NCBI GenBank assembly: GCA_028707065.1
Contig: JAQTUZ010000003.1
Span: 2,501-66,500 of the forward strand
DNA length: 64,000 nucleotides
Direction: 5' to 3'
DNA from: Patescibacteria group bacterium
GTDB taxonomy: Bacteria; Patescibacteriota; Patescibacteriia; Patescibacteriales; WJLG01
Shown: in pieces, positions 2,943 through 61,010 of the stretch
Position numbering within the stretch: position 1 is the stretch's first letter
How the letters are laid out: each line of letters starts with the position of its first letter
Translations under genes and position numbers: made by a program
Notes under the pieces: model-generated
What the model saw: only the letters and a program-made list of their open reading frames with translations
Database searches by the model: none
What the model was told of the DNA's origin: nothing

Positions 2943-4619
2943 ATGGTTAGTCCGCATTTAACCAAAAAGAAAAGCGAAATACTGACAGTTACTTTAGGCA
3001 CCCGAAAACTTTTCCAGACCGTTTATCGCGAACAGAGCCAGGAGGTGAAAGAAAACGAAGGCGAAGCCAAGATAAAAGTTTCGGCGCTGATCTCCAAGGT
3101 CGCTTTTTATTACGAGAAGGTCCGCAATTACGTCGATTATAATGAAGAGCATCTGCACCGCAAGTACGCGGTGGCCCGCATTTTAAAACGGCAATTGGTC
3201 ATCGAAGGCGCGGTGAAGATCACCAATAGCGAAGAAACGTCGCGCAATCTTCTGACCGAATTGATCCGCGCCGGCTATCTGCCCAATGACAAGATCCCCG
3301 AAGGCAAGATCGATGAAGTGAAAGCGATCCTGGAAAAACATTTGCGCCTGCGCGAACTGGCGATGCCGCACGGGATCACGGCTCAGATGGCCAAGCTGGT
3401 CACCAAGGAAAAAAGAGAATTGGGCGATTGGCTGATCGGTATTGCCGCTTCCGAGATCGAGTCGATTTTGGAAGTGGACAAAATCAAAGAGATGGTGATC
3501 AGCAATATGTACGAATATCTGGTCAAATTCATCAAGCTGCCGGTCAATTTCGCCGTTTACGAAAAAGATCTGCCCATTCAAATTTATTTAAGCATCTACC
3601 GCACTTATTTAAAGTTCGACCGCTCGATGCTGTCCTTCATAATTTTTAAATATTATAACGCTGACTGGTGGAACCCGACCGAAGAAACTACGGCTAAGAT
3701 CGCCGCCAATATTCTGCCCTTGCGGCAGGCGATCGAGCGGCAGCTTGATCACCCGCTGGTCAAACAATTGGATAAGATCATCAACAAATACACGGTTTTT
3801 TATTCGATCCTCACCGATATGATCAAAGAAGACCCGGCGTCGCTTTATGAGACGATCAAGAGCAAGCCGCAGGTTTTTCCCGATCTGGTGAAAAACAATT
3901 TTCAAAAAAAATTTAATGTGACCAAGGCCCGCCTTTGGCGCGCCGGCGTCAATAGCATTATTTACATCTTCTTGACCAAGACGATCTTCGCGGTCTTACT
4001 GGAAATTCCGGCGACAAAATATCTGGGCGAAGAGATCAATCCTTATTCTTTGGCGGTTAATATTTTATTCCCGCCCTTCTTATTGCTTTTAGTGATTTTG
4101 TTCACTCGAGTTTCTTCGGAAGAAAATAACAAGCGCGTGGTGGCCGGGGTGGACGAAATAACTTTTGAGGAAAAGAACCGCCGCGATCCGATCGTCTTGC
4201 GCAAACCGACCATCAGGGGTCCGGTCATCAGCTTTATTTTCAGCCTGCTTTACTCGCTGACCTTTTTGGTTTCTTTCGGCGCGGTCGTTTGGGCCTTGGA
4301 TAAGATCCACTTCACCTGGGTGAGCATCACCATCTTCTTGTTCTTCTTGGCTTTTGTCAGTTTCTTTTCGATCCGCATCCGCAAAAGCGTCCAGCAATTG
4401 ATCGTCATCGAAGAAAGGGAAAATCTGCTCGATTTTCTGCTTGATTTTTTCTTCATCCCGATCGCGGCCGTGGGCAAATGGCTGTCAAAAAAGTTCGCCA
4501 AGATCAACGTCTTTATGTTCCTGATGGATTTCGTGATCGAAGCGCCGTTCAAAGTCTTCGTCGAGATCGCCGAGCAGTGGACGAAATATGTCAGGGAAAG
4601 GAAGGAGGATATCGAATAA
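2943..4619 (+). CDS. Large hypothetical membrane protein (558 aa)
   Basis: Long ORF with a soluble helical N-terminal half and several TM helices in the C-terminal half. No family recognised with confidence. Confidence 0.75.
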   Translation: MVSPHLTKKKSEILTVTLGTRKLFQTVYREQSQEVKENEGEAKIKVSALISKVAFYYEKVRNYVDYNEEHLHRKYAVARILKRQLVIEGAVKITNSEETSRNLLTELIRAGYLPNDKIPEGKIDEVKAILEKHLRLRELAMPHGITAQMAKLVTKEKRELGDWLIGIAASEIESILEVDKIKEMVISNMYEYLVKFIKLPVNFAVYEKDLPIQIYLSIYRTYLKFDRSMLSFIIFKYYNADWWNPTEETTAKIAANILPLRQAIERQLDHPLVKQLDKIINKYTVFYSILTDMIKEDPASLYETIKSKPQVFPDLVKNNFQKKFNVTKARLWRAGVNSIIYIFLTKTIFAVLLEIPATKYLGEEINPYSLAVNILFPPFLLLLVILFTRVSSEENNKRVVAGVDEITFEEKNRRDPIVLRKPTIRGPVISFIFSLLYSLTFLVSFGAVVWALDKIHFTWVSITIFLFFLAFVSFFSIRIRKSVQQLIVIEERENLLDFLLDFFFIPIAAVGKWLSKKFAKINVFMFLMDFVIEAPFKVFVEIAEQWTKYVRERKEDIE

Positions 4620-4626
4620 TTTGAAA

Positions 4627-4722
4627 TGTAATACTAATCCACGAATACATACTAATATAACGAATAATAATTTAGAACGCATTCGTCATATTAGTATGTA
4701 TTCGTATTAAATTAGTATTACA
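4627..4722. repeat. Three-tier near-perfect hairpin built from acgaat/attcgt and actaat words
   Basis: tgtaatactaat (4627-4638) pairs with attagtattaca (4711-4722). acgaatacatactaatat (4641-4658) pairs with atattagtatgtattcgt (4688-4705). An inner acgaat/attcgt pair completes the stem. Confidence 0.85.
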
Positions 4723-7415: not shown

Positions 7416-7430
7416 TTTATCTAGTTTGTC

Positions 7431-7497
7431 ATTTTCGCGAATGCGGAAATCCAAGATTGAGCGCACGGAATCTGGATCCCCGCATTCGCGGGGATGA
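7431..7497. repeat. Long GC-rich hairpin repeat (gtcat..cgcgaatgcgg / ccgcattcgcg..gatgac type)
   Basis: tcgcgaatgcgg pairs with ccgcattcgcg around a second inner stem. Confidence 0.7.
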
Positions 7498-7510
7498 CTG
7501 AATAAAATTT

Positions 7511-9047: not shown

Positions 9048-9093
9048 ACCCACCCCGTCTCGCGAGGCGCGAGCCACCCCTCCCAAGAGGGGA
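9048..9093. repeat. GC-rich two-hairpin repeat unit (family A, reverse)
   Basis: acccaccccgtctcgcgaggcgcgagccacccctcccaagagggga. Confidence 0.85.
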
Positions 9094-9782: not shown

Positions 9783-11384
9783 ATGTCCAAGTTTTATATC
9801 ACCACCACCCTTCCTTACGTCAATGCCGAGCCGCATATCGGGTTTGCGGCGGAGATTATCAAGGCGGATTGTTTAGCCAGATGGCACACGTTGCTGGGCG
9901 ACGAGGTATTCTTTAATACCGGTACCGATGAGCACGGGCAGAAGATCTATGAGAAGGCCAAAGAGGCTGGCATTGATCCGCAAACTTATTGCGATGAATA
10001 TGCGGCAAAATTCCGCAGCTTGAAAGAGCTGTTGAATTTAAGCGTGACTAATTTTATCAGGACGACCGATGAAAAACATATCAAAGCGGCGCAGGCTTTT
10101 TGGAAGCTCTGCGAGGCTAACGGTGATATTTATAAAAAGGATTACAAGATTAAATATTGCGTGGGCTGCGAGCTGGAAAAAACCGATTCGGAATTGGTAA
10201 ACGGCTGCTGCCCGTTACATCCGAACAAAGCTTTGGAAGAAATAAACGAAGAAAATTATTTCTTTAAATTTTCAAAATATCAACAACCGCTTTTGGATTT
10301 GTATAAAAATAATCCTGATTTTGTGAAGCCGGAAGAACGCGCTAATGAGATCAAGTCTTTTGTGGAAAGGGGATTGCAGGATTTTTCTATCTCCCGCCTG
10401 GCCACGAAAATGCCTTGGGGGATTCCGGTGCCGGGCGATGAGACGCAAGTGATGTACGTCTGGTTTGATGCGTTGGTTAATTATATAAGTTGTCTCGGAT
10501 GGCCGGATACAAACCACCCCCAGACCCCTCCTTCGGAAGGAGGGGGGCTGACACACCCCGCCTCGCCGGGCTCGGCACCCCTCTCGAGAGGGGACTTTGA
10601 CACACCCCGCCCTTCCACCCAAGGCGGACAAGTCGGCACCCCTCTTGATAGAGGGGACTTATTTAGTGAGTATTGGCCAGGATTACAGGTTTGCGGCAAG
10701 GATAATTTAAGGCAGCAGACCGCAATGTGGCAGGCAATGTTAATGTCGGCGGGATTGCCTAATTCCAAACAGGTTTTGGTTTTTGGTTTTATTACCGTGA
10801 ACGGACAAAAAATGTCTAAGTCGTTGGGGAATGTTGTTAATCCAGCAGAGATGGTGGTGAAATACGGACTTGATGCGACAAGATATTATCTTTTGAAAGA
10901 GATCAAACCTTTCGCTGATAGTGATTTTTCCTGGGAAAAGATGAATTTACTTTATACGGCCGACTTGGCCAACGGCATTGGAAATTTAGCCGCGCGTGTT
11001 TCAACTCTGCTCGAAAAAAATCAGATCGAAACTGTTTTGCTTACACCAACCATAACACACCCCGTCCGCCCAGGGGGCGTCCACCCCTCTCAAGAGGGGA
11101 CTTTTGCCGCATTCGCGGAGAAGATGGAACAATATGCCTTTGACGAAGCTTTGGGAGTATTATGGAAAAAAATTGCCGAGTGCGACGTAACCCTCACCGA
11201 AAAAAAGCCTTGGAAAATGGAAGACAAGGCGGAAATTAAAAAAGTCCTCGAGCCGATCGCCCAGGAAATATTGAATATTGCTTATTTACTGGCGCCTTTT
11301 ATGCCGGAAACTTCGGAAAAAATTATCAAGCAATATTCGGAAACGCAAATTAAAAAAAGCGATTCGTTATTCCCCAGAATCTAA
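9783..11384 (+). CDS. metG: Methionyl-tRNA synthetase, carrying in-frame repeat insertions
   Basis: TTTLPYVNAEPHIGFA (HIGH region), KMSKSLGN (KMSKS), and the anticodon-domain tail. Confidence 0.95.
   Translation: MSKFYITTTLPYVNAEPHIGFAAEIIKADCLARWHTLLGDEVFFNTGTDEHGQKIYEKAKEAGIDPQTYCDEYAAKFRSLKELLNLSVTNFIRTTDEKHIKAAQAFWKLCEANGDIYKKDYKIKYCVGCELEKTDSELVNGCCPLHPNKALEEINEENYFFKFSKYQQPLLDLYKNNPDFVKPEERANEIKSFVERGLQDFSISRLATKMPWGIPVPGDETQVMYVWFDALVNYISCLGWPDTNHPQTPPSEGGGLTHPASPGSAPLSRGDFDTPRPSTQGGQVGTPLDRGDLFSEYWPGLQVCGKDNLRQQTAMWQAMLMSAGLPNSKQVLVFGFITVNGQKMSKSLGNVVNPAEMVVKYGLDATRYYLLKEIKPFADSDFSWEKMNLLYTADLANGIGNLAARVSTLLEKNQIETVLLTPTITHPVRPGGVHPSQEGTFAAFAEKMEQYAFDEALGVLWKKIAECDVTLTEKKPWKMEDKAEIKKVLEPIAQEILNIAYLLAPFMPETSEKIIKQYSETQIKKSDSLFPRI
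10507..10662. repeat. Three stacked family-A/A2 repeat units inside the metG reading frame
   Basis: acacaccccgcctcgccgggctcggcacccctctcgagaggggactt, then acacaccccgcccttccacccaaggcggacaagtcggcacccctcttgatagaggggactt, preceded by a partial unit. Confidence 0.85.
11055..11104. repeat. Single family-A repeat unit inside the metG reading frame
   Basis: acacaccccgtccgcccagggggcgtccacccctctcaagaggggactt. Confidence 0.85.
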
Positions 11385-13283: not shown

Positions 13284-13405
13284 GAAACCCACCCCGCCTC
13301 GCTCACGCTCGGCACCCCTCCCGGGGAGGGGAATAAAATGGAAACCCACCCCCAACTTCGCTCCGCCGAACGGAGCTACGATGGACAAGCCGGGGAAGGG
13401 GATAA
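13284..13405. repeat. Two tandem GC-rich repeat units (family A, then A2)
   Basis: aaacccaccccgcctcgctcacgctcggcacccctcccggggaggggaat, then aaacccacccccaacttcgctccgccgaacggagctacgatggacaagccggggaagggga. Confidence 0.8.
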
Positions 13406-14055: not shown

Positions 14056-15396
14056 ATGTTCAATTTTTTAAAATTTTTCCAAAAAAAGCAAAGAGAAGGG
14101 GAACTGGCCGCCAGGCATCATTTTGTCCGCCAGGCGATACTGGTTGTTTTGGTTATAATTTTATTATTTGTTTCTTTCGCCGCCGGAATGTACGCCACCG
14201 GCAAGAATAAACTGATCGCCGTTTTGGCCAGCAAAGAAACCGTTTATCTGGGCAAGATCACCGGCAAATATCAGCAAGATACGGGCGGGCGCTTGTCGCA
14301 GGATATTGATTTTAATTTGTATTGGGAAGTTTGGGATGCCTTAAAAGCCAGATATGTCGATAAGGACAAGCTCAATGAAAAGGAAATGTTTTACGGTTCC
14401 TTGCGCGGCTTGGCCGCGTCATTGGGCGATCCTTATACCGTGTTTTTCGACCCTAAGGATTCGCAAACTTTTGCCAATGATCTGTCCGGAACTTTCGAAG
14501 GCATCGGCGCCGAAGTCGGCTTGCGCAATGACGCGATCACCATTATCGCGCCGCTCTCGGGAATGCCGGCGGAAAAAGCCGGCATCAAGGCCGGCGATAC
14601 GATCATTGCCATTAATGGTTCTTCAACTTTGAATATGACGATCGATCGGGCGGTGGAAAGGATCCGCGGCCCCAAGGGAACAAGGGTGACGCTGACGATT
14701 TTCCGCCAGGGATTCAAGGAAACCAAGGATATTTCGATCATCCGCGACGTCATTTATGTCAAAAGCGTGAAGACCGAATTCAGATCGGATAAAATTTTTG
14801 TCATCACTGTTTCCAATTTCAATGAAGACACCGCCGGTCTTTTTGAGAACGCCGTGCAAGAAGCGGTTAAGGACAAGCCGAAAGGCTTGGTTGTTGATTT
14901 GCGCAATAATCCCGGCGGCTTTTTGGATTCGGCGATCAGCCTGGCCTCCGAGTGGGTGCCTTCGGGCAAGCTGGTGGTGAGCGAAAAATCGACCGATCCG
15001 GCCGAGAATGGCCAATATGATTCTTCGGGCATCCAGCATTTGCGCGATTATCCCACGGTCGTTCTGGTCAACGGCGGATCGGCTTCGGCCTCGGAAATAT
15101 TAGCCGGCGCGCTTAAGGATTACGGTTTGGCTAAAGTTGTGGGCGAAAAAACTTACGGCAAAGGTTCGGTGCAGGCCCTGGAATCCTTGAGCGATGGTTC
15201 GATGATCAAGATCACCGTGGCCAAATGGTACACGCCCAACGGCTATTCGATCGATGAGCAGGGGATTACGCCTGATATCACGGCCACCACTTCCGAAGCG
15301 GCCTTTAACGCCGGTAAAGACCCGCAATTAGACACAGCGGTTAATATTTTACTGGGTAAAAGCACTTCCACGCCGGGTACGGCAACCAAAAAATAA
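14056..15396 (+). CDS. S41-family C-terminal processing peptidase with PDZ domain
   Basis: N-terminal TM segment, PDZ domain (GIKAGDTIIAINGSS), LRNNPGG, and GGSASASEILAGAL containing the catalytic Ser. Confidence 0.9.
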   Translation: MFNFLKFFQKKQREGELAARHHFVRQAILVVLVIILLFVSFAAGMYATGKNKLIAVLASKETVYLGKITGKYQQDTGGRLSQDIDFNLYWEVWDALKARYVDKDKLNEKEMFYGSLRGLAASLGDPYTVFFDPKDSQTFANDLSGTFEGIGAEVGLRNDAITIIAPLSGMPAEKAGIKAGDTIIAINGSSTLNMTIDRAVERIRGPKGTRVTLTIFRQGFKETKDISIIRDVIYVKSVKTEFRSDKIFVITVSNFNEDTAGLFENAVQEAVKDKPKGLVVDLRNNPGGFLDSAISLASEWVPSGKLVVSEKSTDPAENGQYDSSGIQHLRDYPTVVLVNGGSASASEILAGALKDYGLAKVVGEKTYGKGSVQALESLSDGSMIKITVAKWYTPNGYSIDEQGITPDITATTSEAAFNAGKDPQLDTAVNILLGKSTSTPGTATKK

Positions 15397-15397
15397 A

Positions 15398-15851
15398 TTA
15401 GTTGATTAGTTAATTGGTTAATTAGTTTTTATGGGGAGGGGCTTAGAAAAATTAAAGATATACAGACTGTCGGTTCGCTTAGAAATTTTTGTTCACCGCG
15501 TAGTTAATGAAAAATTTCCCGAGGAAGAAAAATATCGCAGCTCTGACCAATTAAAAAGATCGTCATCTTCTTCGTCTGACAATATCGCTGAAAGCTACGG
15601 CAAATTTTCTTTTGGCGCTAAAATAAATCATTTATACATTGCGAGGGGAGAAATGGCGGAAACGAAAAGCGGAATTGAAAGAGCGTATTTAAAAGGTTTC
15701 ATTTCCGAAGAATTGGCAGAATTCACGGTCAATAAATATACGGAACTAATTAAGCAAACCAATTGCTATATCAATTTTTTAAAACATAAAAAAATTAAAT
15801 AGTTGAACTGGTTTATTCTAAAACTAATTAACCAATTAACTAATTAACTAA
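15398..15851. mobile_element. Compact cassette: a four-helix-bundle gene bracketed by 30-bp inverted repeats
   Basis: IR-L at 15398-15427 is ttagttgattagttaattggttaattagtt. The reverse complement of IR-R at 15822-15851 is ttagttaattagttaattggttaattagtt (29/30 identical). The cassette starts 2 nt after the ctp stop and ends 1 nt before the pyrG ATG. Confidence 0.55.
15431..15802 (+). CDS. Four-helix-bundle protein (23S rRNA intervening-sequence protein / Avd-like family)
   Basis: LKIYRLSVRLEIFVHRV, QLKRSSSSSSDNIAESYG and YIARGEMAETKSGIERA follow the pattern of the family often annotated S23 ribosomal / four helix bundle protein. Confidence 0.8.
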   Translation: MGRGLEKLKIYRLSVRLEIFVHRVVNEKFPEEEKYRSSDQLKRSSSSSSDNIAESYGKFSFGAKINHLYIARGEMAETKSGIERAYLKGFISEELAEFTVNKYTELIKQTNCYINFLKHKKIK

Positions 15852-15852
15852 C

Positions 15853-17532
15853 ATGGTTGAGAAGATCAAAAAAGATAAAACCAAATATGTGTTTGTCGTC
15901 GGCGGCGTGATGTCCGGCGTAGGCAAGGGGATTACCACTTCGTCGATCGCCATGATTTTGCAGTCCAAGGGCTATAAGGTGAGCGCCTGCAAGATCGATC
16001 CCTATATCAACGTCGATGCCGGCACGATGAATCCGGTGGAACACGGCGAAGTTTTTGTGACCGATGACGGCGATGAAACCGACCAGGATGTCGGTAATTA
16101 TGAAAGATTTTTGAATAAAAATATCTACCGCGAGAATTATATGACCACCGGCCGGGTTTATCTTTCCGTCATCCAAAAAGAGCGGAATTTGGAATACGGC
16201 GGCAAGTGCGTGGAAGTTGTGCCGCATATTCCGCTGGAGGTGATCGGCCGCATCCATACGGCCGCGGAAAAAGCCGGCGCGGAAATCATGGTAGTGGAGA
16301 TCGGCGGCACGGTCGGCGAATATCAAAACTTGCTGTTCTTGGAAGCGGCCAGAATGATGAAACTTTATAATCCGGAAAGCGTCCAATTCGTGATGGTTTC
16401 TTTCTTGCCCATTCCCAGCAAACTTGGCGAGATGAAAACCAAGCCGACGCAATACGCGATCCATTCTTTGAACGCGGCCGGTATTCAGCCGAACTTTATC
16501 GTCGCCCGCGCCGAAGTGCCGGTCGACGAACCCAGACGCGCCAAGATCGCCATCAATTGCGGTATTGCTCCGGAAGACGTCATTTCCGCTCCTGATATTG
16601 ATTCAATTTATGATGTGCCGCTGAATTTCGAGAAAGATCATTTGGGCGACCGGATCCTCGACAAATTCGGCTTAAAGAAAAAGAAAGATGATATGAAAGA
16701 ATGGACGGCGATGGTGGCCAAAAGACGGAAAGCCAAAAAAACAGTGGAGATAGGCATTGTGGGCAAATATTTTGTCAGCGGCCATTTTTGTTTTACTGAT
16801 TCCTATGTTTCAGTCATTGAAGCTATAAAACACGCCGCAACTTTTAATAATTGCAAGGCTAATTTGCATTGGCTCGGTTCGGATGAAGTGGAAAAAAACG
16901 GCGCGTCGTTCTTGAAAAAATACGACGGCATCATTGTTCCGCAGGGCTGGGGCTCGCGCGGCGCCGAAGGTAAGATCGCCACGATCGAATATTGCCGCAA
17001 GAATAAAAAGCCGTATTTCGGCTTATGCTATGGCATGCAAATGGCGGTGATCGAATTCGCCCGCCATGTTTTGGGATTCAAGGATGCCAACTCGGCCGAA
17101 GTCAATCCGGCTACCAAGCATCCCGTCATCCATATTATGCCGGGACAGGCGGAATTGCTCGCCCAAAAACAATACGGCGGCACGATCCGTCTGGGCGGCT
17201 GGCCATGCAAAATAGTTAAAGGCACGCATTTATATCGAGCTTATCAAGTTGATAAAAATAAAGACGATATTGTGATCGAACGCCATCGTCATCGCTATGA
17301 ATATAATAACGAATACCGCGAATTAATGGAGAAAAAAGGTTTAACCGTGGCCGGTACTTCGCCGGATGGACAAATTGTCGAGGCAGTGGAAATTACTGAT
17401 CACCCTTTCTTTATCGGCACGCAATTTCATCCGGAATATATTTCCCGTCCGCTCGCGCCGCACCCGCTGTTCGTCGAATTCATCAAAGTCTGCTTGACAT
17501 TGAAGAAGAAAAAGAGTAAAAAAGATAAATAA
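15853..17532 (+). CDS. pyrG: CTP synthase
   Basis: KYVFVVGGVMSGVGKGITTSSI at the N-terminus. The C-terminal glutaminase domain has GLCYGMQ and HRHRYE. Confidence 0.95.
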   Translation: MVEKIKKDKTKYVFVVGGVMSGVGKGITTSSIAMILQSKGYKVSACKIDPYINVDAGTMNPVEHGEVFVTDDGDETDQDVGNYERFLNKNIYRENYMTTGRVYLSVIQKERNLEYGGKCVEVVPHIPLEVIGRIHTAAEKAGAEIMVVEIGGTVGEYQNLLFLEAARMMKLYNPESVQFVMVSFLPIPSKLGEMKTKPTQYAIHSLNAAGIQPNFIVARAEVPVDEPRRAKIAINCGIAPEDVISAPDIDSIYDVPLNFEKDHLGDRILDKFGLKKKKDDMKEWTAMVAKRRKAKKTVEIGIVGKYFVSGHFCFTDSYVSVIEAIKHAATFNNCKANLHWLGSDEVEKNGASFLKKYDGIIVPQGWGSRGAEGKIATIEYCRKNKKPYFGLCYGMQMAVIEFARHVLGFKDANSAEVNPATKHPVIHIMPGQAELLAQKQYGGTIRLGGWPCKIVKGTHLYRAYQVDKNKDDIVIERHRHRYEYNNEYRELMEKKGLTVAGTSPDGQIVEAVEITDHPFFIGTQFHPEYISRPLAPHPLFVEFIKVCLTLKKKKSKKDK

Positions 17533-31723: not shown

Positions 31724-31740
31724 ATAATATATAATCCGAA

Positions 31741-31890
31741 TACTACAAACTGTATCCGAGTACTACGAACTCTACAAAACGAACAGGATGTTCGAAAAAA
31801 ATGTTCGTAGTATTCGGACACATTATAACTAATTCGGATGAGCCGCATTCGTAGTGCGGCGGACGAATCACGTAGGTTCGGATTATATTT
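31741..31890. repeat. acgaac/gttcgt word hairpins
   Basis: ccgagtactacgaac pairs with gttcgtagtattcgg (one mismatch). A second hairpin is ccgca-ttcgtag-tgcgg. Confidence 0.7.
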
Positions 31891-32622: not shown

Positions 32623-32727
32623 AAATTGGTTGATTAGTTGATTGGTTAATTAGTTGTTGAACAGTCGGCTTCGTTCAACGAGAAATTGGTTGTAATAAAA
32701 CCAATTAACTAATTAACCGATTAACTA
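32623..32727. repeat. Cargo-less long hairpin of the ttaattagtt/aactaattaa word family
   Basis: ggttaattagtt (32644-32655) pairs with aactaattaacc (32708-32719). There is a central gttgaac/gttcaac stem. The right arm encodes the last six codons and stop of the GT4 gene. Confidence 0.75.
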
Positions 32728-33844
32728 TTTTTTCTACCATTTTTTTAGCACTAAAATTTTCCACAACGCGCCTTTTGCCTTGCTCGCCCAATGACTGCCT
32801 TAATTTGGGATCGGCCGCCAGTTTGATGACCGCTTGGGCGATTTCTTCCGGTTTTTCCGGATCAATCAGCAAGCCGTTGATATCGTGGATTACCGCGTCG
32901 CGCACTCCCCCGCTGTCTCCGGCAATCACCGGCTTGCCGGCCAAGTTCGCTTCCAGATAAACCGTGCCGAAACCTTCATAATCGCCGGCGATATTCCGGG
33001 AGGGCATTATAAATATATCACATAACTCAAGCCATGCCCACCGGTCGGCGTCGGAAATCTGCCCCAAAAAAATAATTTTATTATTAATCTCCGCCGGCAA
33101 GCCCGCAGCCATTTTTTTAAAAGTATCGGCATCCGGTCCGGCGCCGGCAATCACATAAACCGTAGCAGGGGCTGATTTAAGTATCGCGCTCATCGCTTCG
33201 ATCACTTTATCAAAGCCTTTGCGCCGCACCAATCGGCCCAAACCCAGCAAGACTGTTTTATTTTCCTGGCCATATTGCCGTAGCAGGTCCTGGACGCGGC
33301 GCGGGTTTCTGACAAAGCTCGGTTCGATGCCCGGATTGACCAGGCCCATTTTTTCGGCAAAACTGCCATTGAAAACTTTGACCGAATTAGCCGTATAGCT
33401 GTTGGAACAAATGATCTTGTCCGCCCCGCGCAAAATTTTTTCAGTGATTCGCCTCTTTCTTTTGGTGGCGGTAGCTAAGGAAAAATCCAGGCCATGAAGC
33501 AGTACGGTATATTTGAATTTGATGAATTTGGATAAATAATAAGCGACAATGCCCAGCGGAAGTATTTGCCCCACGATCACCCGTACTTCTCCGCCCAGAT
33601 CATTGATCGCCGAGCGCAACTGGAAAAAAGCCGGTAACCAGCGCGGCCGGATCTTAGCGGATAACAACCGGCGATATTTTATCGGCTCGCGGTCTTTTAC
33701 TCCCAAGGCGTCATCAGCTAAAACAAACAAACTGCCTGCCGGCCAATATTCGGCATAATTTTCGTAGAGCGTCGCTACGCCGCCCTTTTGCGGCGGAAAT
33801 TCCAAAGTGACTAATAAATATTTTTTTTCGGCCAATGGTTTCAT
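32705..33844 (-). CDS. Glycosyltransferase family 4 (GT-B, group 1)
   Basis: EGFGTVYLEANLAGKPVIAGDSGGVRDAV is the E-x7-E region typical of GT4. Confidence 0.9.
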   Translation of the reverse strand: MKPLAEKKYLLVTLEFPPQKGGVATLYENYAEYWPAGSLFVLADDALGVKDREPIKYRRLLSAKIRPRWLPAFFQLRSAINDLGGEVRVIVGQILPLGIVAYYLSKFIKFKYTVLLHGLDFSLATATKRKRRITEKILRGADKIICSNSYTANSVKVFNGSFAEKMGLVNPGIEPSFVRNPRRVQDLLRQYGQENKTVLLGLGRLVRRKGFDKVIEAMSAILKSAPATVYVIAGAGPDADTFKKMAAGLPAEINNKIIFLGQISDADRWAWLELCDIFIMPSRNIAGDYEGFGTVYLEANLAGKPVIAGDSGGVRDAVIHDINGLLIDPEKPEEIAQAVIKLAADPKLRQSLGEQGKRRVVENFSAKKMVEKIVNRLIS

Positions 33845-43050: not shown

Positions 43051-43366
43051 AAAATATGTTTATGTTCTTAATTTTAACACATCCATGGAAAATTATAAAC
43101 GCGATGGCCGGTTTTGTCCATTTTTACGTCACAATTTTTTAACGATTTTGTAAAGGTTTTATCATCATTTTTTAGCGCCTAAAATTCTTGCTTATCGGTT
43201 CTTTTTTTGCTATAATTATAGCAGACAAAGCAATAAACCTGTGTTAATAAATCAAGTAGCTTGAGTGTTGTTTATGGGGCTAATATTAAGTGATTAATTC
43301 GACTGGATGACTAGCCAAATTAATTTTATTTAATCAACTTTTCCCCAATCAACCAATTAACCAAAT

Positions 43367-45403
<2,037 letters not shown>

Positions 45404-45577
45404 AGAAAATTCCAAAATTCTAAGCTCAAAATCCAAAACAAGCACGAAATTAAAAATCCAAAATTAAAAAAATTCGAGTTTTGGTCATTTGAATTTTAAA
45501 TTTATTTTGGATTTCGGATTTTGTGCTTCGGATTTAAATATAAAATATAGCGATAAATTTAAATTTATATAACCTTT

Positions 45578-46011: not shown

Positions 46012-46108
46012 CTATACGAACTACGAATCTTTACGAATATACGAATCAACGAATTAATCCATGAATTTTAGAATTCGTATATTCGTAATTATTCGTAGTT
46101 CGTAGAGT
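46012..46108. repeat. Two-tier hairpin of tacgaat/attcgta words
   Basis: tacgaatatacgaat (46032-46046) pairs perfectly with attcgtatattcgta (46073-46087). The outer arm ctatacgaactacgaat pairs with attcgtagttcgtagag (one mismatch). Confidence 0.85.
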
Positions 46109-50119: not shown

Positions 50120-50200
50120 AAAGATTAAATTTACAATTTACAATTTTAAATTTTCAAATAATTTTCAAATGTTTAAATTCTTAAAAAATGCATTCAAACA

Positions 50201-50229
50201 TTGACAAAAAAATATTTTTATGCTAATCT
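50201..50229 (+). promoter_or_regulatory. Promoter TTGACA-17-TAATCT
   Basis: TTGACA at 50201-50206, a 17-nt spacer ending tgc, then TAATCT at 50224-50229. Confidence 0.55.
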
Positions 50230-50278
50230 CTCTCTATAAGATTTTAACACATTGCTCTATATTACAAGGAGGATAAAA

Positions 50279-50536
50279 ATGAATCAGAGAAGTACTAATG
50301 TTTCTGCGTTTGGTCTTCTTGTGAACGCGCTGACTAAAAAAAGCGACGATGGCGATACTGGGGAAATCTTCCCCCTATCTGACGCTAAAGATTTAGAATG
50401 CGGCGCTCAAATGATCCCCAGAAAAGTTACCGATGCCAGGCGTGCCGGTAAAAAGGTTATTTTTTCCACAAAAGGCGAACAACATCAATGGTATTGGTTA
50501 ATGCCAGATGGTTCTAAAATTTATAACGAAGTTTAA
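50279..50536 (+). CDS. Small hypothetical protein (85 aa)
   Basis: AAGGAGGA is upstream of the ATG at 50279. The gene has its own promoter and terminator and is inserted between eno and pgk on the opposite strand. Confidence 0.6.
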   Translation: MNQRSTNVSAFGLLVNALTKKSDDGDTGEIFPLSDAKDLECGAQMIPRKVTDARRAGKKVIFSTKGEQHQWYWLMPDGSKIYNEV

Positions 50537-50565
50537 AGAACCTTTTAACATGCAAATCCTTGATA

Positions 50566-50600
50566 GCCCTTGTGCTTTCGTGCAAGGGTTTTTTATTTTT
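50566..50600 (+). terminator. Rho-independent terminator
   Basis: A cccttg...caaggg stem followed by ttttttattttt. Confidence 0.7.
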
Positions 50601-50677
50601 AAAAATTTATAAATTAAAAAATTATTTCCCTGGCCGCGTCCCGCATCCGCGGGCAGGCAAAATTGAAAATTTAAAAT

Positions 50678-54261: not shown

Positions 54262-54300
54262 ATATTCACGTAGCACATAGCACGCAACACATAACAAGCG
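54262..54300. repeat. cacataac word repeat (left arm of an inverted pair)
   Basis: cacgtagcacatagcacgcaacacataaca. The reverse complement of 54484-54517 is gcacatagcataaagcacgtaacacataacac. Confidence 0.7.
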
Positions 54301-54480
54301 CGCAAAAGCTGCTTTTTATAAAAAAATTATCTCAATGCAATTATACCATTTTTTTAATAAAAATCAATTAAGCCGCGGCCTCATGCCAGGTAATCAACTG
54401 CAATGTTAATTTTATAAAATTATCGCAAAATAAGGTATTTTATATTTTCTGTCTCTTTCTAAATCCGGTAAATTTTATAT

Positions 54481-55416
54481 TTATGTGTTATGTGTTACGT
54501 GCTTTATGCTATGTGCAGAAAATTCGCAGCCGCAATATTTCTGCCGATAAAATCTAAATTTTCGGGAAAGCAATAATGAGCGCTGCCAGCCGTTATTTTC
54601 CTTAAAATCCTGATCCAGAAATTTTTGGCCGGTTATTTCGGCAATGGCTAAGCCGGCTTTATTGACGAGGTAAGAATTTTTATGCGGGCTGACCGTCAAG
54701 GTCGTAGCGTAATAAGGAATATTTTGCCGGCTGGCAAGTTGCGCCGCCTCCCGCAAGCGATGGGCAAAACACAATTCGCATCTCGATCCGCCTTCGGGTT
54801 GATCTTCACGGCCTTTGATCGCCGCCAGCCAATCTTGATGATCGTAATTTCCGATCCGTAATTTTATCCCGAAATTCCTGGCCAATTTTTTAACTTCGGC
54901 CAGGCGTTTTCGATATTCTCTTTCCGGGTGGATGTTGGGATTAAAAAAATATAATTCCAATTTAAAGCCTGACGACAAGATTTCCGCCACCGCCGAGGCG
55001 CAAGGCGCGCAACAGACGTGCAAAAGAAGTTTTTGCCGCGGCGAATGATGGATCATATAGGCGATGGGAATGGCGAGCGAAGCTCCGACCACGCCGGCCA
55101 AAAAATCCAGATAAGAAGGGATTCTGCCGGGTATATAAGCTTGCACGAATTCACCAAGAACATTGATCAAGGCAACGAAAACAAAAGAAAAAAAGGCGAC
55201 CTGGCGGAAAGTAAATTTATCCCAGGCAATGACCGCCGCCATAACCAAATAAGCCATCACCCCGAAAAAGACCAAGTGAGCCGCTTTGTCATAAAAAGTG
55301 ACGCGGGAAAAATCGGTCGGCAGATAGATCAGCGGATACCAAAGCAATGACAAAACAGCGGCCAGCCAACAAAGCAAAACAAAAATCAATAAATATTTTT
55401 TCATCGATAAAGTCAA
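54481..55416 (-). CDS. queH: Fusion of a VanZ-like membrane domain with epoxyqueuosine reductase QueH (DUF208)
   Basis: The N-terminal ~130 aa have four TM helices with FYDKAAHLVFFG (VanZ-like). The C-terminal part has LLLHVCCAPCA...YFFNPNIHP...CELCF...YCGCEFS (QueH Cys motifs). Confidence 0.8.
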   Translation of the reverse strand: MTLSMKKYLLIFVLLCWLAAVLSLLWYPLIYLPTDFSRVTFYDKAAHLVFFGVMAYLVMAAVIAWDKFTFRQVAFFSFVFVALINVLGEFVQAYIPGRIPSYLDFLAGVVGASLAIPIAYMIHHSPRQKLLLHVCCAPCASAVAEILSSGFKLELYFFNPNIHPEREYRKRLAEVKKLARNFGIKLRIGNYDHQDWLAAIKGREDQPEGGSRCELCFAHRLREAAQLASRQNIPYYATTLTVSPHKNSYLVNKAGLAIAEITGQKFLDQDFKENNGWQRSLLLSRKFRFYRQKYCGCEFSAHSIKHVTHNT

Positions 55417-60931: not shown

Positions 60932-60939
60932 TTTTGTAT

Positions 60940-61010
60940 CATGTATAATGTATTATGTATAATGTGCCAGATACAAGATCCTTAATACATTATACATAAT
61001 ACTTAATACT
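60940..61010. repeat. tacataat word hairpin
   Basis: gtattatgtataatgt pairs with acattatacataatac (16 bp). Confidence 0.7.

Follow-up and report, generated by a model that had tools for sequence, protein, structure and literature searches.

The closest described relatives of the locus studied here are intervening sequences (IVS) of rRNA that carry an S23p open reading frame (ORF). In Leptospira, Coxiella burnetii and Brucella this ORF, which like ours belongs to family PF05635, lies inside a stem of about 28–32 bp. In the Coxiella IVS, RNase III cuts in the middle of a 28-bp stem, and tandem heptamers stand next to the S23p start codon (PMC4990558). Since the early 1990s the rRNA IVS with S23p ORFs have been left without a function or a mobility mechanism. 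Family PF05635 is very large (1,240 clusters of 50% identity at E ≤ 1e-3), and Avd is its only understood branch.

The cyanobacterial STRR heptamers are grouped with intergenic arrays of the TAACTGA type. The latter occur in Beggiatoaceae, Cyanobacteria and Bacteroidetes as 2–6 or more units that repeat every 7 nt and have stop codons inside. They mostly end about 1 nt ahead of a start codon, lie in spacers poor in SD motifs, have a patchy phylogenetic distribution, and have been proposed as binding sites of a post-transcriptional regulator (PMC4679880). The Correia elements (CREE) of Neisseria form hairpins in mRNAs that RNase III can bind and cleave, and the stem of their terminal inverted repeats (TIRs) alters the expression of the adjacent gene (PMC2649163).

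Here we describe a locus between ctp and pyrG in a window of Patescibacteria DNA (the whole stretch of 64,000 nt that was analyzed). Our reading, which we hold with moderate confidence, is that it is an IVS-type cassette in a protein-coding operon and not in an rRNA gene: a promoter-less gene of the S23p four-helix-bundle (4HB) family set in mirror-image arrays. The literature searched holds no description of this architecture outside rRNA.

Structure of the Cassette

The features are collected in Table 1. The left arm starts 2 nt after the ctp stop codon (TAA, 15394–15396), a single nucleotide separates it from the ATG of the 4HB gene, and another lies between the right arm and the pyrG ATG, so that arm, ORF and arm occupy the whole ctp–pyrG spacer to within 1 nt per side. 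The two arms lie 390 nt apart and are complementary at 31 of 32 positions (97%), with a z score of 23 for the inverted repeat. As in IVS elements, they would form a long stem around the ORF, and a long-range stem appears in both the MFE and the centroid folds of the 481-nt region (z −3.7). Both arms are arrays of 7–8-nt units with a TAG core, placed as two mirror-image sets around the gene. The earlier note had described 30-bp inverted repeats (29/30), which are real: they are this inverted repeat taken at slightly less than its full length. Its picture of a 123-codon gene tightly bracketed by them holds, with 1 nt to the left arm and 17 nt to the right, and its outer limits, from 2 nt past the ctp stop to 1 nt before the pyrG ATG, agree with ours.

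Table 1. Features of the ctp–pyrG cassette and of related arrays in the window.
Feature	Position	Strand	Remarks
ctp (S41 C-terminal processing peptidase), upstream host gene	14056..15396	+	PF03572 E 2e-51; TIGR00225 E 2e-102
Left (5′) arm	15398..15429	+	inverted repeat, 32 nt; four 8-nt units TTAGTTGA TTAGTTAA TTGGTTAA TTAGTTTT
4HB gene (S23p / 23S rRNA IVS protein family), 123 aa, MDD4901826.1	15431..15802	+	PF05635; TIGR02436
Inner 3′ spacer, 17 nt, from 4HB stop codon to right arm	15803..15819	+	fast-evolving against the related loci L001 and L089
Right (3′) arm, reverse complement of left arm	15820..15851	+	AACTAATT/AACCAATT units
pyrG (CTP synthase), downstream host gene, MDD4901827.1	15853..17532	+	TIGR00337 E 1e-199
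ORF-less hairpin from cassette-type units	32624..32731	-	arms about 32627–32655 and 32698–32731; small inner hairpin
Lone right-arm-like array CAATCAACCAATTAACCAAAT	43347..43366	+	directly upstream of gyrB ATG; no partner arm

The gene order cvpA-sua5-ctp-pyrG is common to the window and its relatives. The host site of an IVS is helix 25/45 of 23S rRNA, while that of the cassette is the stop/start spacer of a protein-coding operon: its neighbors are ctp and pyrG, not a 23S or 16S rRNA helix, and no Rfam families, including rRNA, and no tRNA were found in the 64-kb window. A scan detected neither a sigma-70-like promoter nor an intrinsic terminator within the cassette. The rRNA IVS likewise have no promoter of their own, and expression in both cases therefore depends on the host transcript.

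On this architecture the following chain of events can be proposed. The cassette would be transcribed by read-through from ctp. The arms would then pair in the transcript, forming a stem of about 32 bp, so that the stop codon of ctp comes to lie beside the start codon of pyrG. A dsRNA endonuclease, RNase III for example, would probably act on such a stem, as it does on rRNA IVS and the Neisseria Correia elements; the stem in the window makes a good dsRNA substrate. Its cleavage by RNase III is plausible; such cleavage has been demonstrated for IVS and is predicted for the cassette, and among the window ORFs there is no signature of rnc, the RNase III gene. The putative cleavage would split the ctp message from that of pyrG, as the earlier note had also considered, and set free a hairpin-capped 4HB mRNA. 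At either end the arrays would also close every reading frame, and the right array may serve pyrG as an A/C-rich leader lacking an SD motif.

The Four-Helix-Bundle Protein

The 4HB protein is a member of the 23S-IVS (S23p) four-helix-bundle family. The assignment made in the earlier note was borne out by both profiles above their curated cut-offs: PF05635 matched with 78 bits (cut-off 33.8, E 7e-22, profile positions 1–104 of 106) and TIGR02436 with 72.6 bits (cut-off 24, E 3e-20). The AlphaFold2 monomer has a pLDDT of 94 and long helices at residues 9–28, 31–57, 61–87 and 93–122. With this model Foldseek retrieved 2GSC (TM 0.89–0.95) and 2RLD (TM 0.80–0.90); each of these entries contains five chains, and by their example the 4HB protein would assemble as a homopentameric toroid too. 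No match for it was found in PADLOC or PHROGs, and no clade members occur among the IMG/VR viral contigs.

The likeness to Avd deserves separate consideration. Avd has the same four-helix-bundle fold, is pentameric in solved structures and comes next after the S23p proteins in the Foldseek results (4DWL, 8UBE; TM about 0.75–0.87), and PF05635 is the commonest Pfam family near diversity-generating retroelements (PMC10053308). Is the cassette gene, then, the Avd accessory of such a retroelement or its remnant? The earlier note had raised this possibility, which we now regard as very improbable. There is no reverse transcriptase in the window, where the YxDD motifs in long ORFs belong to a GT4 glycosyltransferase and to an antisense artefact, and TR/VR-like direct repeats are absent within ±10 kb (5000–27000); the locus is therefore not a diversity-generating retroelement. 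The protein shares about 10% of its sequence with Avd, and a PDB profile search that reached 2GSC at E 2e-11 stopped short of Avd. Moreover, the neighbors of the 4HB gene are housekeeping genes in 66 of 66 loci. For the window locus the retroelement reading is effectively refuted.

The 4HB gene is well preserved. Its dN/dS is 0.05–0.07, and between relatives the protein is 88–93% identical, against 86–88% for PyrG and 75–77% for Ctp, at a dS of 0.73–1.40 compared with 0.9–1.7 for the host genes. In this respect it differs from the ORF of the Coxiella IVS, which is decaying and probably not translated, whereas dN/dS is about 0.06 here. The arms of the window cassette are 30/32 and 32/32 identical to those of L001 and L089 at a dS of about 0.7, while only 8 and 11 of the 17 nucleotides of the inner spacer are shared with these loci. 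Strong purifying selection is thus shown for the protein as well as for the arms.

Other Arrays and Hairpins in the Window

A 22-nt pattern of the arm, allowing up to 3 mismatches, has 6 matches in the window and none in 100 shuffles. The earlier note had suggested a search for arm copies without cargo, and such a copy exists in the form of the ORF-less hairpin on the minus strand. It fills the junction of two glycosyltransferase genes (GT1 and GT2) of that strand; the upstream stop codon lies inside one arm, and the downstream ATG is 1 nt from the other. Its fold energy is −32.7 kcal/mol (z −6.0). Aligned to the cassette with its ORF deleted, it scores 44.5 against 11.3 ± 2.8 for shuffles, and the alignment extends into inner, non-arm sequence. 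This copy shows that the cassette leaves ORF-less hairpin derivatives.

The derivative has the format of CREE, and the cassette itself resembles CREE and MITEs (ERIC, RUP, BOX), which are intergenic inverted-repeat elements co-transcribed with their neighbors. However, CREE have no ORF, duplicate a TA target and number hundreds of nearly identical copies, while the cassette has a conserved protein gene, periodic arms, no target duplication and very few, diverged copies per genome. The arms are TIR-like; in 64 kb there are only 2–3 copies, and these have diverged.

The array upstream of gyrB may be a remnant, a target in trans or a coincidence. The placement of arrays relative to the start codon is the same as at pyrG for both GT2 (32622) and gyrB (43367).

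Many other long spacer hairpins stand at gene boundaries in the window. An inverted pair at 50156–50627, with 408 nt between its arms, was considered as a second cassette and rejected: it is an AT-rich low-complexity stretch, and the small gene that it surrounds is an ordinary one which has a promoter and a terminator of its own.

Sequence and Pairing of the Arms

Arrays of the TAGTT type are closely associated with the 4HB genes. In 317 kb around genes of the 4HB clade there are 96 of them (none in shuffles), and 91 of the 96 lie no more than 200 nt from the gene, whereas 737 kb of Patescibacteria DNA selected only for pyrG contained one. Because the arrays are nearly absent from the pyrG-selected DNA and concentrated at 4HB genes, the arms are neither chance products nor generic spacer. 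The earlier note had allowed that they might be generic low-complexity spacer, and this does not hold, given their strict tie to 4HB genes. A related explanation would be that an AT-rich spacer happens to be self-complementary. The spacers are indeed AT-rich and the pair at 50156–50627 is exactly such an artefact, but this origin has a practically negligible probability for the arms, and we take it as refuted by the zero matches in shuffles, by the z score of the window arms, by the census and by the conservation of the arms at saturated dS.

How far is the pairing of the arms conserved, as distinct from their sequence? Over 72 non-redundant loci the flanks hold inverted repeats with z ≥ 3 in 46 and z ≥ 8 in 21, and 16 clade members, about a fifth, have no detectable inverted arms (z < 2). 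The RNA duplex energy of the flanks is −30 kcal/mol or lower at 39/72 loci, compared with 5/72 when the partner is shuffled. Mismatches in the arms show no bias towards G.U wobble (26 vs 23; 72 transversions), no compensatory pairing changes were found across the clade, and in pairing, the partner arm of the same locus has no more than a modest advantage over arms from related cassettes (first rank in 8/71). Since the arms keep their sequence motifs without compensatory change, pairing is perhaps not the sole or main property under selection. What is conserved throughout the clade is the unit sequence, and not demonstrably the pairing.

The units differ between lineages. Subclades in Patescibacteria use TTAGTT, TTAGG, TGTTAAAC and CTAAT, and the distant Patescibacteria member L034 has a different unit and reversed array polarity. 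Cyanobacterial homologues have GGGTGTA and GGGGAGCA. All seven homologues on cyanobacterial plasmids are wrapped in G-rich arrays of period 7/8, direct instead of inverted in one of them, which points to wrapping by arrays as a trait of the whole family. The spacing of units is 8 nt in 101 cases and 7 nt in 53, and it varies from 6 to 8 nt within one arm.

These observations permit another explanation, in which the arms are chiefly sequence-specific recognition arrays and not a stem: a 4HB oligomer, or some other factor, would bind the 7–8-nt units in DNA or RNA. The arrays at the cassette's own gene would then serve autoregulation or maintenance, those before GT2, gyrB and pyrG would be targets in trans, and the complementarity of the arms would be a by-product of inverted motif placement. 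We regard this as possible though not likely. It accounts for unit sequences that are tied tightly to the protein clade and differ by subclade in Patescibacteria and cyanobacteria, for arms kept without compensatory change or wobble bias, and for the homologue with direct arrays; three further start codons of the window also have cassette-type units 1–3 nt ahead of them, TAACTGA-type arrays elsewhere have been proposed as regulator binding sites (PMC4679880), and the related Avd sits in a ribonucleoprotein complex (8UBE). Yet protein binding is putative for the whole S23p family, and the units of one arm are unevenly spaced (6–8 nt). Most loci are inverted and have real duplex potential, which a pure binding array does not need. 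Arrays away from 4HB genes are rare (5/96 within the 4HB loci, and a single one in the other 737 kb), so a large regulon is unlikely.

The arms also invite comparison with the known heptamer arrays. In Coxiella the copy number of the GACAGAT heptamers varies between strains, while here the units are 8-mers whose number varies between loci; both stand next to the ORF start. The right-arm units TAACTAAT and TAACCAAT are one mismatch from TAACTGA, and other clade members have units like TCAGTTA/TAACTGA. The right arm agrees with the heptamer-array leaders in its tandem units 1 nt before the pyrG ATG and in its SD-poor spacer; SD motifs were found in 6/55 genes of this genome. Stop codons in all three frames are present in the left arm at 28/38 loci (8.4 expected) and in the right arm at 22/38 (4.9 expected), a 3–4-fold enrichment. 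In contrast, TAACTGA-type arrays are stand-alone direct repeats before many unrelated genes, with no link to 4HB reported, whereas the arrays of the cassette are inverted pairs tied almost exclusively to 4HB genes.

Distribution, Empty Sites and Mobility

Returning to our reading of the locus as an IVS-type cassette, we can trace its distribution across Patescibacteria. The unit of arm, ORF and arm was found at no fewer than 14 types of inter-cistronic junction. It is co-oriented with both neighbors at 63 of 66 loci, against a baseline of 63% (P = 6e-10). Measured from the host genes, the median position of the outer arm edges is −3 nt at the stop codon and +1 nt at the start codon, and between the ctp–pyrG and pheS–pheT cassettes DNA homology starts and stops at these edges. 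The cassette is thus shown to be a single heritable unit which has settled between the stop and start codons of many co-directional gene pairs.

The ctp–pyrG clade is nested inside the pheS–pheT clade, and on these phylogenetic grounds the ctp–pyrG copy is shown to derive from the pheS–pheT copy. The sister copy of the ctp–pyrG clade is MDD4902336.1, which probably belongs to the same MAG as the window cassette, so that one genome would contain two paralogous copies. The pheS–pheT copy also turned up in SRR22315508. Switches of junction occur within protein clades. The ctp–pyrG junction in relatives, which the earlier note had proposed to compare, is empty in L169, L170, L171, L172 and L174 (PyrG 77–89%), where the spacers measure 7–66 nt; L173 has rplI there. 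Gaps of ~450–650 nt between ctp and pyrG in many Patescibacteria were considered as diverged cassettes and rejected because they contain rplI. No rRNA was found in 20 loci of odd spacing. On gain versus loss (L169) the PyrG tree has weak bootstrap support. A C-terminal extension of Ctp is common to the cassette-bearing lineages and absent from L169; this tips the balance mildly towards a single gain and a position of L169 outside that clade.

At four junctions no target-site duplication can be seen, and no transposase or reverse transcriptase was found with the cassette. Because inheritance at the ctp–pyrG junction has long been vertical, jumps are rare; since the wrapped cassette recurs at many gene junctions, it behaves as a slow-moving, operon-dwelling element. 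Judging from these comparisons, it would be mobile only on evolutionary time scales. The term "mobile hairpin cassette" in the earlier note thus suits the many junctions, the empty sites in syntenic relatives and the ORF-less copy, provided that movement is understood as rare. The rRNA IVS are similarly sporadic in distribution, which suggests horizontal spread (PMC4990558; PMC11270868). Homing-endonuclease genes and integron cassettes are likewise single promoter-less ORFs between conserved genes, and the integron cassette has an imperfect inverted repeat (attC); unlike them, our cassette has no nuclease or integrase domain and no attI clustering, and it has short-period repeats on both sides.

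It might be argued that the cassette is a domesticated inter-cistronic module, no longer mobile, whose 4HB protein has some function beneficial to the host, and which is kept for translation termination in all frames, insulation of cistrons and an unstructured SD-less leader downstream. Long vertical residence, as seen in the dS values, very strong purifying selection with 4HB more conserved than PyrG, the enriched all-frame stops, the rarity of SD motifs, the abundance of other long spacer hairpins at window gene boundaries and the lack of a transposase would all suit such a module. Nevertheless, we think it quite unlikely. The cassette is found at at least 14 unrelated junctions, switches between them within protein clades and is probably present in two copies in one genome; close relatives lack it and have spacers down to 7 nt; and the specificity of the arrays for 4HB genes would be left unexplained.

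Implications for the S23p Family

A wider reading can be put forward, tentatively and with a good deal of doubt: S23p/4HB proteins and arrays of 7–8-nt units may form one two-part system across phyla, each clade recognizing its own unit. Several comparisons are consistent with it, namely the near-exclusive association of the Patescibacteria arrays with 4HB genes, the wrapping of 7/7 cyanobacterial plasmid homologues and the other unit of the distant Patescibacteria member, and, by analogy, the equivalent position of the Coxiella IVS heptamers (PMC4990558). If true, the pairing of protein and unit would let cassettes persist, and occasionally move, in highly transcribed rRNA and mRNA operons, and it would explain the rRNA IVS with S23p ORFs, the TAACTGA/STRR arrays and the stand-alone PF05635 family.

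A stem-plus-ORF element that thrives in mRNA operons, with protein and arms both under selection, moves the question of what S23p proteins do away from rRNA biology. Experiments can start from defined arms, from close relatives with filled and with empty sites, from the ORF-less derivative and from a graded series of unit variants. Should the protein bind its own arrays, or the stem be processed, Patescibacteria would have a previously unrecognized means of dividing up or regulating polycistronic mRNAs, and there may be a link to the heptamer arrays that await explanation in cyanobacteria, Beggiatoaceae and Bacteroidetes.

The ctp/pyrG cassette and its protein

The 456-nt spacer between ctp and pyrG in the window contains a 32-nt inverted repeat, 31/32 complementary, enclosing an ORF for a four-helix-bundle (4HB) protein of the S23p family. 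The left arm runs from 2 nt past the ctp stop codon to 1 nt ahead of the 4HB ATG, and the right arm from 17 nt past the 4HB stop codon to 1 nt ahead of the pyrG ATG. Each arm consists of four 8-nt units (TTAGTTGA TTAGTTAA TTGGTTAA TTAGTTTT), a pattern with 0 matches in shuffled sequence, and the long-range arm stem dominates the predicted RNA fold of the region (z -3.7). The feature is real and statistically robust, and the earlier note had described its arms, ORF and ctp and pyrG boundaries correctly in all material respects. Its family assignment also held, since the product matched PF05635 (E 7e-22) and TIGR02436 (E 3e-20), both over the curated cut-offs. The predicted structure is a confident four-helix bundle (pLDDT 94), closest to the S23p-family pentamers 2GSC and 2RLD and then to Avd, the accessory protein of diversity-generating retroelements (DGR), at about 10% identity.

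The 4HB protein (MDD4901826.1) and PyrG (MDD4901827.1) are encoded on a contig, 133,919 nt long, of a Patescibacteria MAG; among named relatives, Candidatus Falkowbacteria and other Patescibacteria are the nearest. The window has about 44% GC. Four copies of a GC-rich 46-nt direct repeat (63-100% identity), each closing with a hairpin-like CACCCCTC..GAGGGGA, are odd for such a genome.

Coordinates of the cassette, of other window features and of sites in comparison loci
Feature	Position	Remark
ctp	14056-15396	S41 peptidase
Ctp C-terminus, with extension	15340-15396
Left arm	15398-15429	inverted repeat
4HB ORF	15431-15802	123 codons
Right arm	15820-15851	inverted repeat
pyrG	15853-17532
ORF-less hairpin, cassette-type units	32624-32731	fills junction of two minus-strand glycosyltransferase genes
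Lone right-arm-like array (CAATCAACCAATTAACCAAAT)	43347-43366	directly before gyrB ATG, divergent intergenic region; no partner arm
Other long hairpins	4641-4705, 7428-7498, 31734-31839, 45440-45528, 46012-46107, 60936-61009
Other long hairpin	54267-54515	189-nt loop without ORF; arms overlap both gene ends
46-nt direct repeats	9048-9093, 10549-10594, 11055-11100
46-nt direct repeat	13287-13332	within apparent 5' extension of Sua5 ORF
Empty site	L170 2980-3003	Ga0378408_0000371
Upstream hairpins, floA junction	L129 719-846, L132 2329-2498, L134 368-534	loops 81-123 nt
Distant PF05635 gene	L034 2690-3170	JAKLID010000052.1; E 4e-10
Cargo-less rplI-pyrG arrays	L017 3940-3995, L025 about 2370-2437, L047 about 3960-3997

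Specificity of the arrays

Could the arms be generic spacer sequence, as the earlier note allowed? TAGTT-type arrays numbered 96 in 317 kb around 4HB genes, 91 of them within 200 nt of the gene, against one in 737 kb of Patescibacteria DNA selected by pyrG only and none in shuffled sequence of the same size. They are specific to the 4HB gene and no general spacer feature. A low-complexity artefact is ruled out by the shuffles, the arm z-scores and this census.

Many other long hairpins occupy window spacers, but with other unit sequences. Those listed in the table have arms of 25-37 nt and lie a few nt from gene ends, several with periodic units of their own (TACGAAT, CACATAGCA, ATGTATAA); these are possibly relics of other cassette clades, or else a spacer feature in its own right. 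The rplI-pyrG gaps of other Patescibacteria carry cargo-less periodic hairpins or arrays (units CAACTACAAACTA, AGCCACTAG, TTCGTAAT), whose TTCGTA unit recurs in window hairpin 46012-46107.

A search for further arm copies, proposed in the earlier note, did reveal cassette-type units in the ORF-less hairpin between the glycosyltransferase genes. The stop codon of one gene falls within an arm, and 1 nt separates the second arm from the other gene's ATG. Aligned with a virtual ORF-deleted cassette this hairpin scored 44.5 (shuffles 11.3 +/- 2.8), and the match extended into non-arm inner sequence, so it would most simply be an ORF-less derivative of the cassette. The lone array before gyrB is right-arm-like.

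The cassette at other gene junctions

The ctp/pyrG junction is also filled in metagenome contigs L001-L004 and L089 (4HB homologues 89-94% identical), and the pheS/pheT junction holds homologues with 85% and 71% identity (contigs L005-L008). When ctp/pyrG and pheS/pheT cassettes were aligned, DNA homology was bounded by the outer edges of both arms.

At 46 of 72 non-redundant 4HB loci of the clade (46-94% identity), the strongest inverted repeat pairing one flank with the other had z >= 3 against shuffles, and at 21 loci it had z >= 8; a flank duplex of -30 kcal/mol or lower was predicted in 39/72, versus 5/72 with a shuffled partner. Arms everywhere consist of TAG-core units, with 101 spacings of 8 nt and 53 of 7 nt. 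Their outer edges have a median position of -3 nt relative to the stop codon upstream and +1 nt relative to the start codon downstream. The 4HB gene runs in the direction of both neighbours at 63 of 66 loci, against a baseline of 63% among gene triples from the same contigs (P = 6e-10). Besides those named, the junctions were nusG/rplK, x/prgI-like, floA/x, NTPase/band-7, x/pfkB, dut/tmk, tmk/thyA, pilB/pilC-type, PIG-L/hexapeptide transferase, corA/cysS, x/ahcY and x/eno.

The floA-junction subclade has a short TAGTT/AACTA hairpin upstream of the 4HB gene, not around it, perhaps in tandem with or nested in another arrangement of the same kind. In L034, a contig of another Patescibacteria lineage with the order ctp/4HB/rplI/pyrG, the arrays have reversed polarity: CTAAT units precede the 4HB gene and ATTAG units follow it (z 11.8).

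Origin and age

Comparison of the ctp-pyrG junction in relatives, also suggested at the outset, separated L001-L004 and L089, with the cassette, from L169-L174, without it. The latter are fully syntenic (cvpA-sua5-ctp-pyrG-...-rpmA) and form a ladder of PyrG identities to the window: L169 (89%, spacer 57 nt), L170 (85%, 7 nt), L171 (84%, 63 nt), L172 (83%, about 66 nt), L173 (79%, rplI in the spacer) and L174 (77%, 39 nt). In many other Patescibacteria rplI also lies between ctp and pyrG. The PyrG tree gave no confident answer on cassette loss in L169. An extension of Ctp by about 10 aa past the ILLGK motif (STSTPGTATKK, PVSKPAAVKK) is common to cassette-bearing lineages and missing from most cassette-free relatives, L169 included. 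At the empty site of L170, TTATTCT separates the ctp end ...TTAACTAATTAA from the pyrG ATG. The sequence is similar to a right-arm unit joined to the inner TTATTCT of the cassette, and could be an excision footprint or a coincidence.

In the 4HB protein tree the ctp/pyrG cassettes are nested within the pheS/pheT clade. Their sister, MDD4902336.1, is probably from the same MAG as the window, because its accession is about 510 numbers from those of the window proteins. Most junction types are confined to one clade, and a switch is seen only occasionally, which indicates long vertical residence and rare jumps. The window copy itself is old, since dS of the 4HB gene (0.73-1.40) tracks that of host genes (0.9-1.7).

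Selection and possible role of the arms

The 4HB gene has dN/dS of 0.05-0.07, and its protein (88-93%) is more conserved than PyrG (86-88%) and Ctp (75-77%). With dS at about 0.7, 30/32 arm positions are identical, against 8/17 in the 17-nt inner spacer. The protein and the arm sequence are both functional. The comparisons across loci establish the unit, its distribution, its insertion pattern and the selection acting on it.

Scanning inside the cassette found no sigma-70-like promoter or intrinsic terminator; given also the co-orientation with host genes, transcription by read-through is likely. The stem of about 32 bp would then be a textbook dsRNA substrate and a candidate for RNase III, which cuts such stems in S23p-bearing rRNA intervening sequences (PMC4990558) and is known to cleave Correia elements in mRNAs (PMC2649163). 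For the cassette we infer co-transcription, formation of the stem and processing by an RNase.

Several observations argue against pairing as the sole selected property of the arms: mismatches have no G.U bias (26 against 23; transversions 72), an arm pairs only modestly better with its own partner than with arms from related cassettes, inverted arms are undetectable in 16/72 clade loci, the polarity is reversed in one distant member, and the arrays of one cyanobacterial homologue are direct. The arrays hold stop codons in all three frames at 3-4 times the composition expectation and terminate 1-3 nt ahead of three start codons in the window, in a genome poor in SD motifs (6/55 genes). In this they resemble the TAACTGA-type arrays that precede start codons in Beggiatoaceae, cyanobacteria and Bacteroidetes and are proposed to bind a post-transcriptional regulator (PMC4679880). 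These features lead to another reading, possible but rather doubtful, in which the 4HB oligomer itself would recognise the arrays.

Classification and the wider family

The Avd/DGR connection raised in the earlier note fell away: neither a reverse transcriptase nor TR/VR repeats were found at the locus, and DGR identity was rejected. An rRNA-embedded intervening sequence was also rejected, as the window holds no rRNA. The clade was not found in viral contigs, and the cassette had no match in defence and phage family libraries.

All 7 PF05635 genes found on cyanobacterial plasmids (L175-L181: NZ_CP046156, NZ_CP117771, NC_019730, NC_010631, NZ_CP050442, AP018208, AP018209) have G-rich arrays of period 7/8 wrapped around them (units GGGTGTA, GGGGAGCA, GGGGAGA), inverted in six (z 6-16) and direct in one (Oscillatoria, z 11.5). 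A tyrosine recombinase/integrase gene adjoins five of them. We found no published account of array-wrapping in the 4HB family within an incomplete coverage of the literature, so that an earlier description is possible.

The arm-ORF-arm unit at many junctions agrees with the mobile hairpin cassette initially proposed, one that moves slowly and over evolutionary time. It is best described as an IVS-type, array-wrapped four-helix-bundle element resident in Patescibacteria mRNA operons. The cyanobacterial arrays, together with heptamers in Coxiella, suggest that wrapping by arrays is a trait of the whole family, the sequence of the units being specific to the host.
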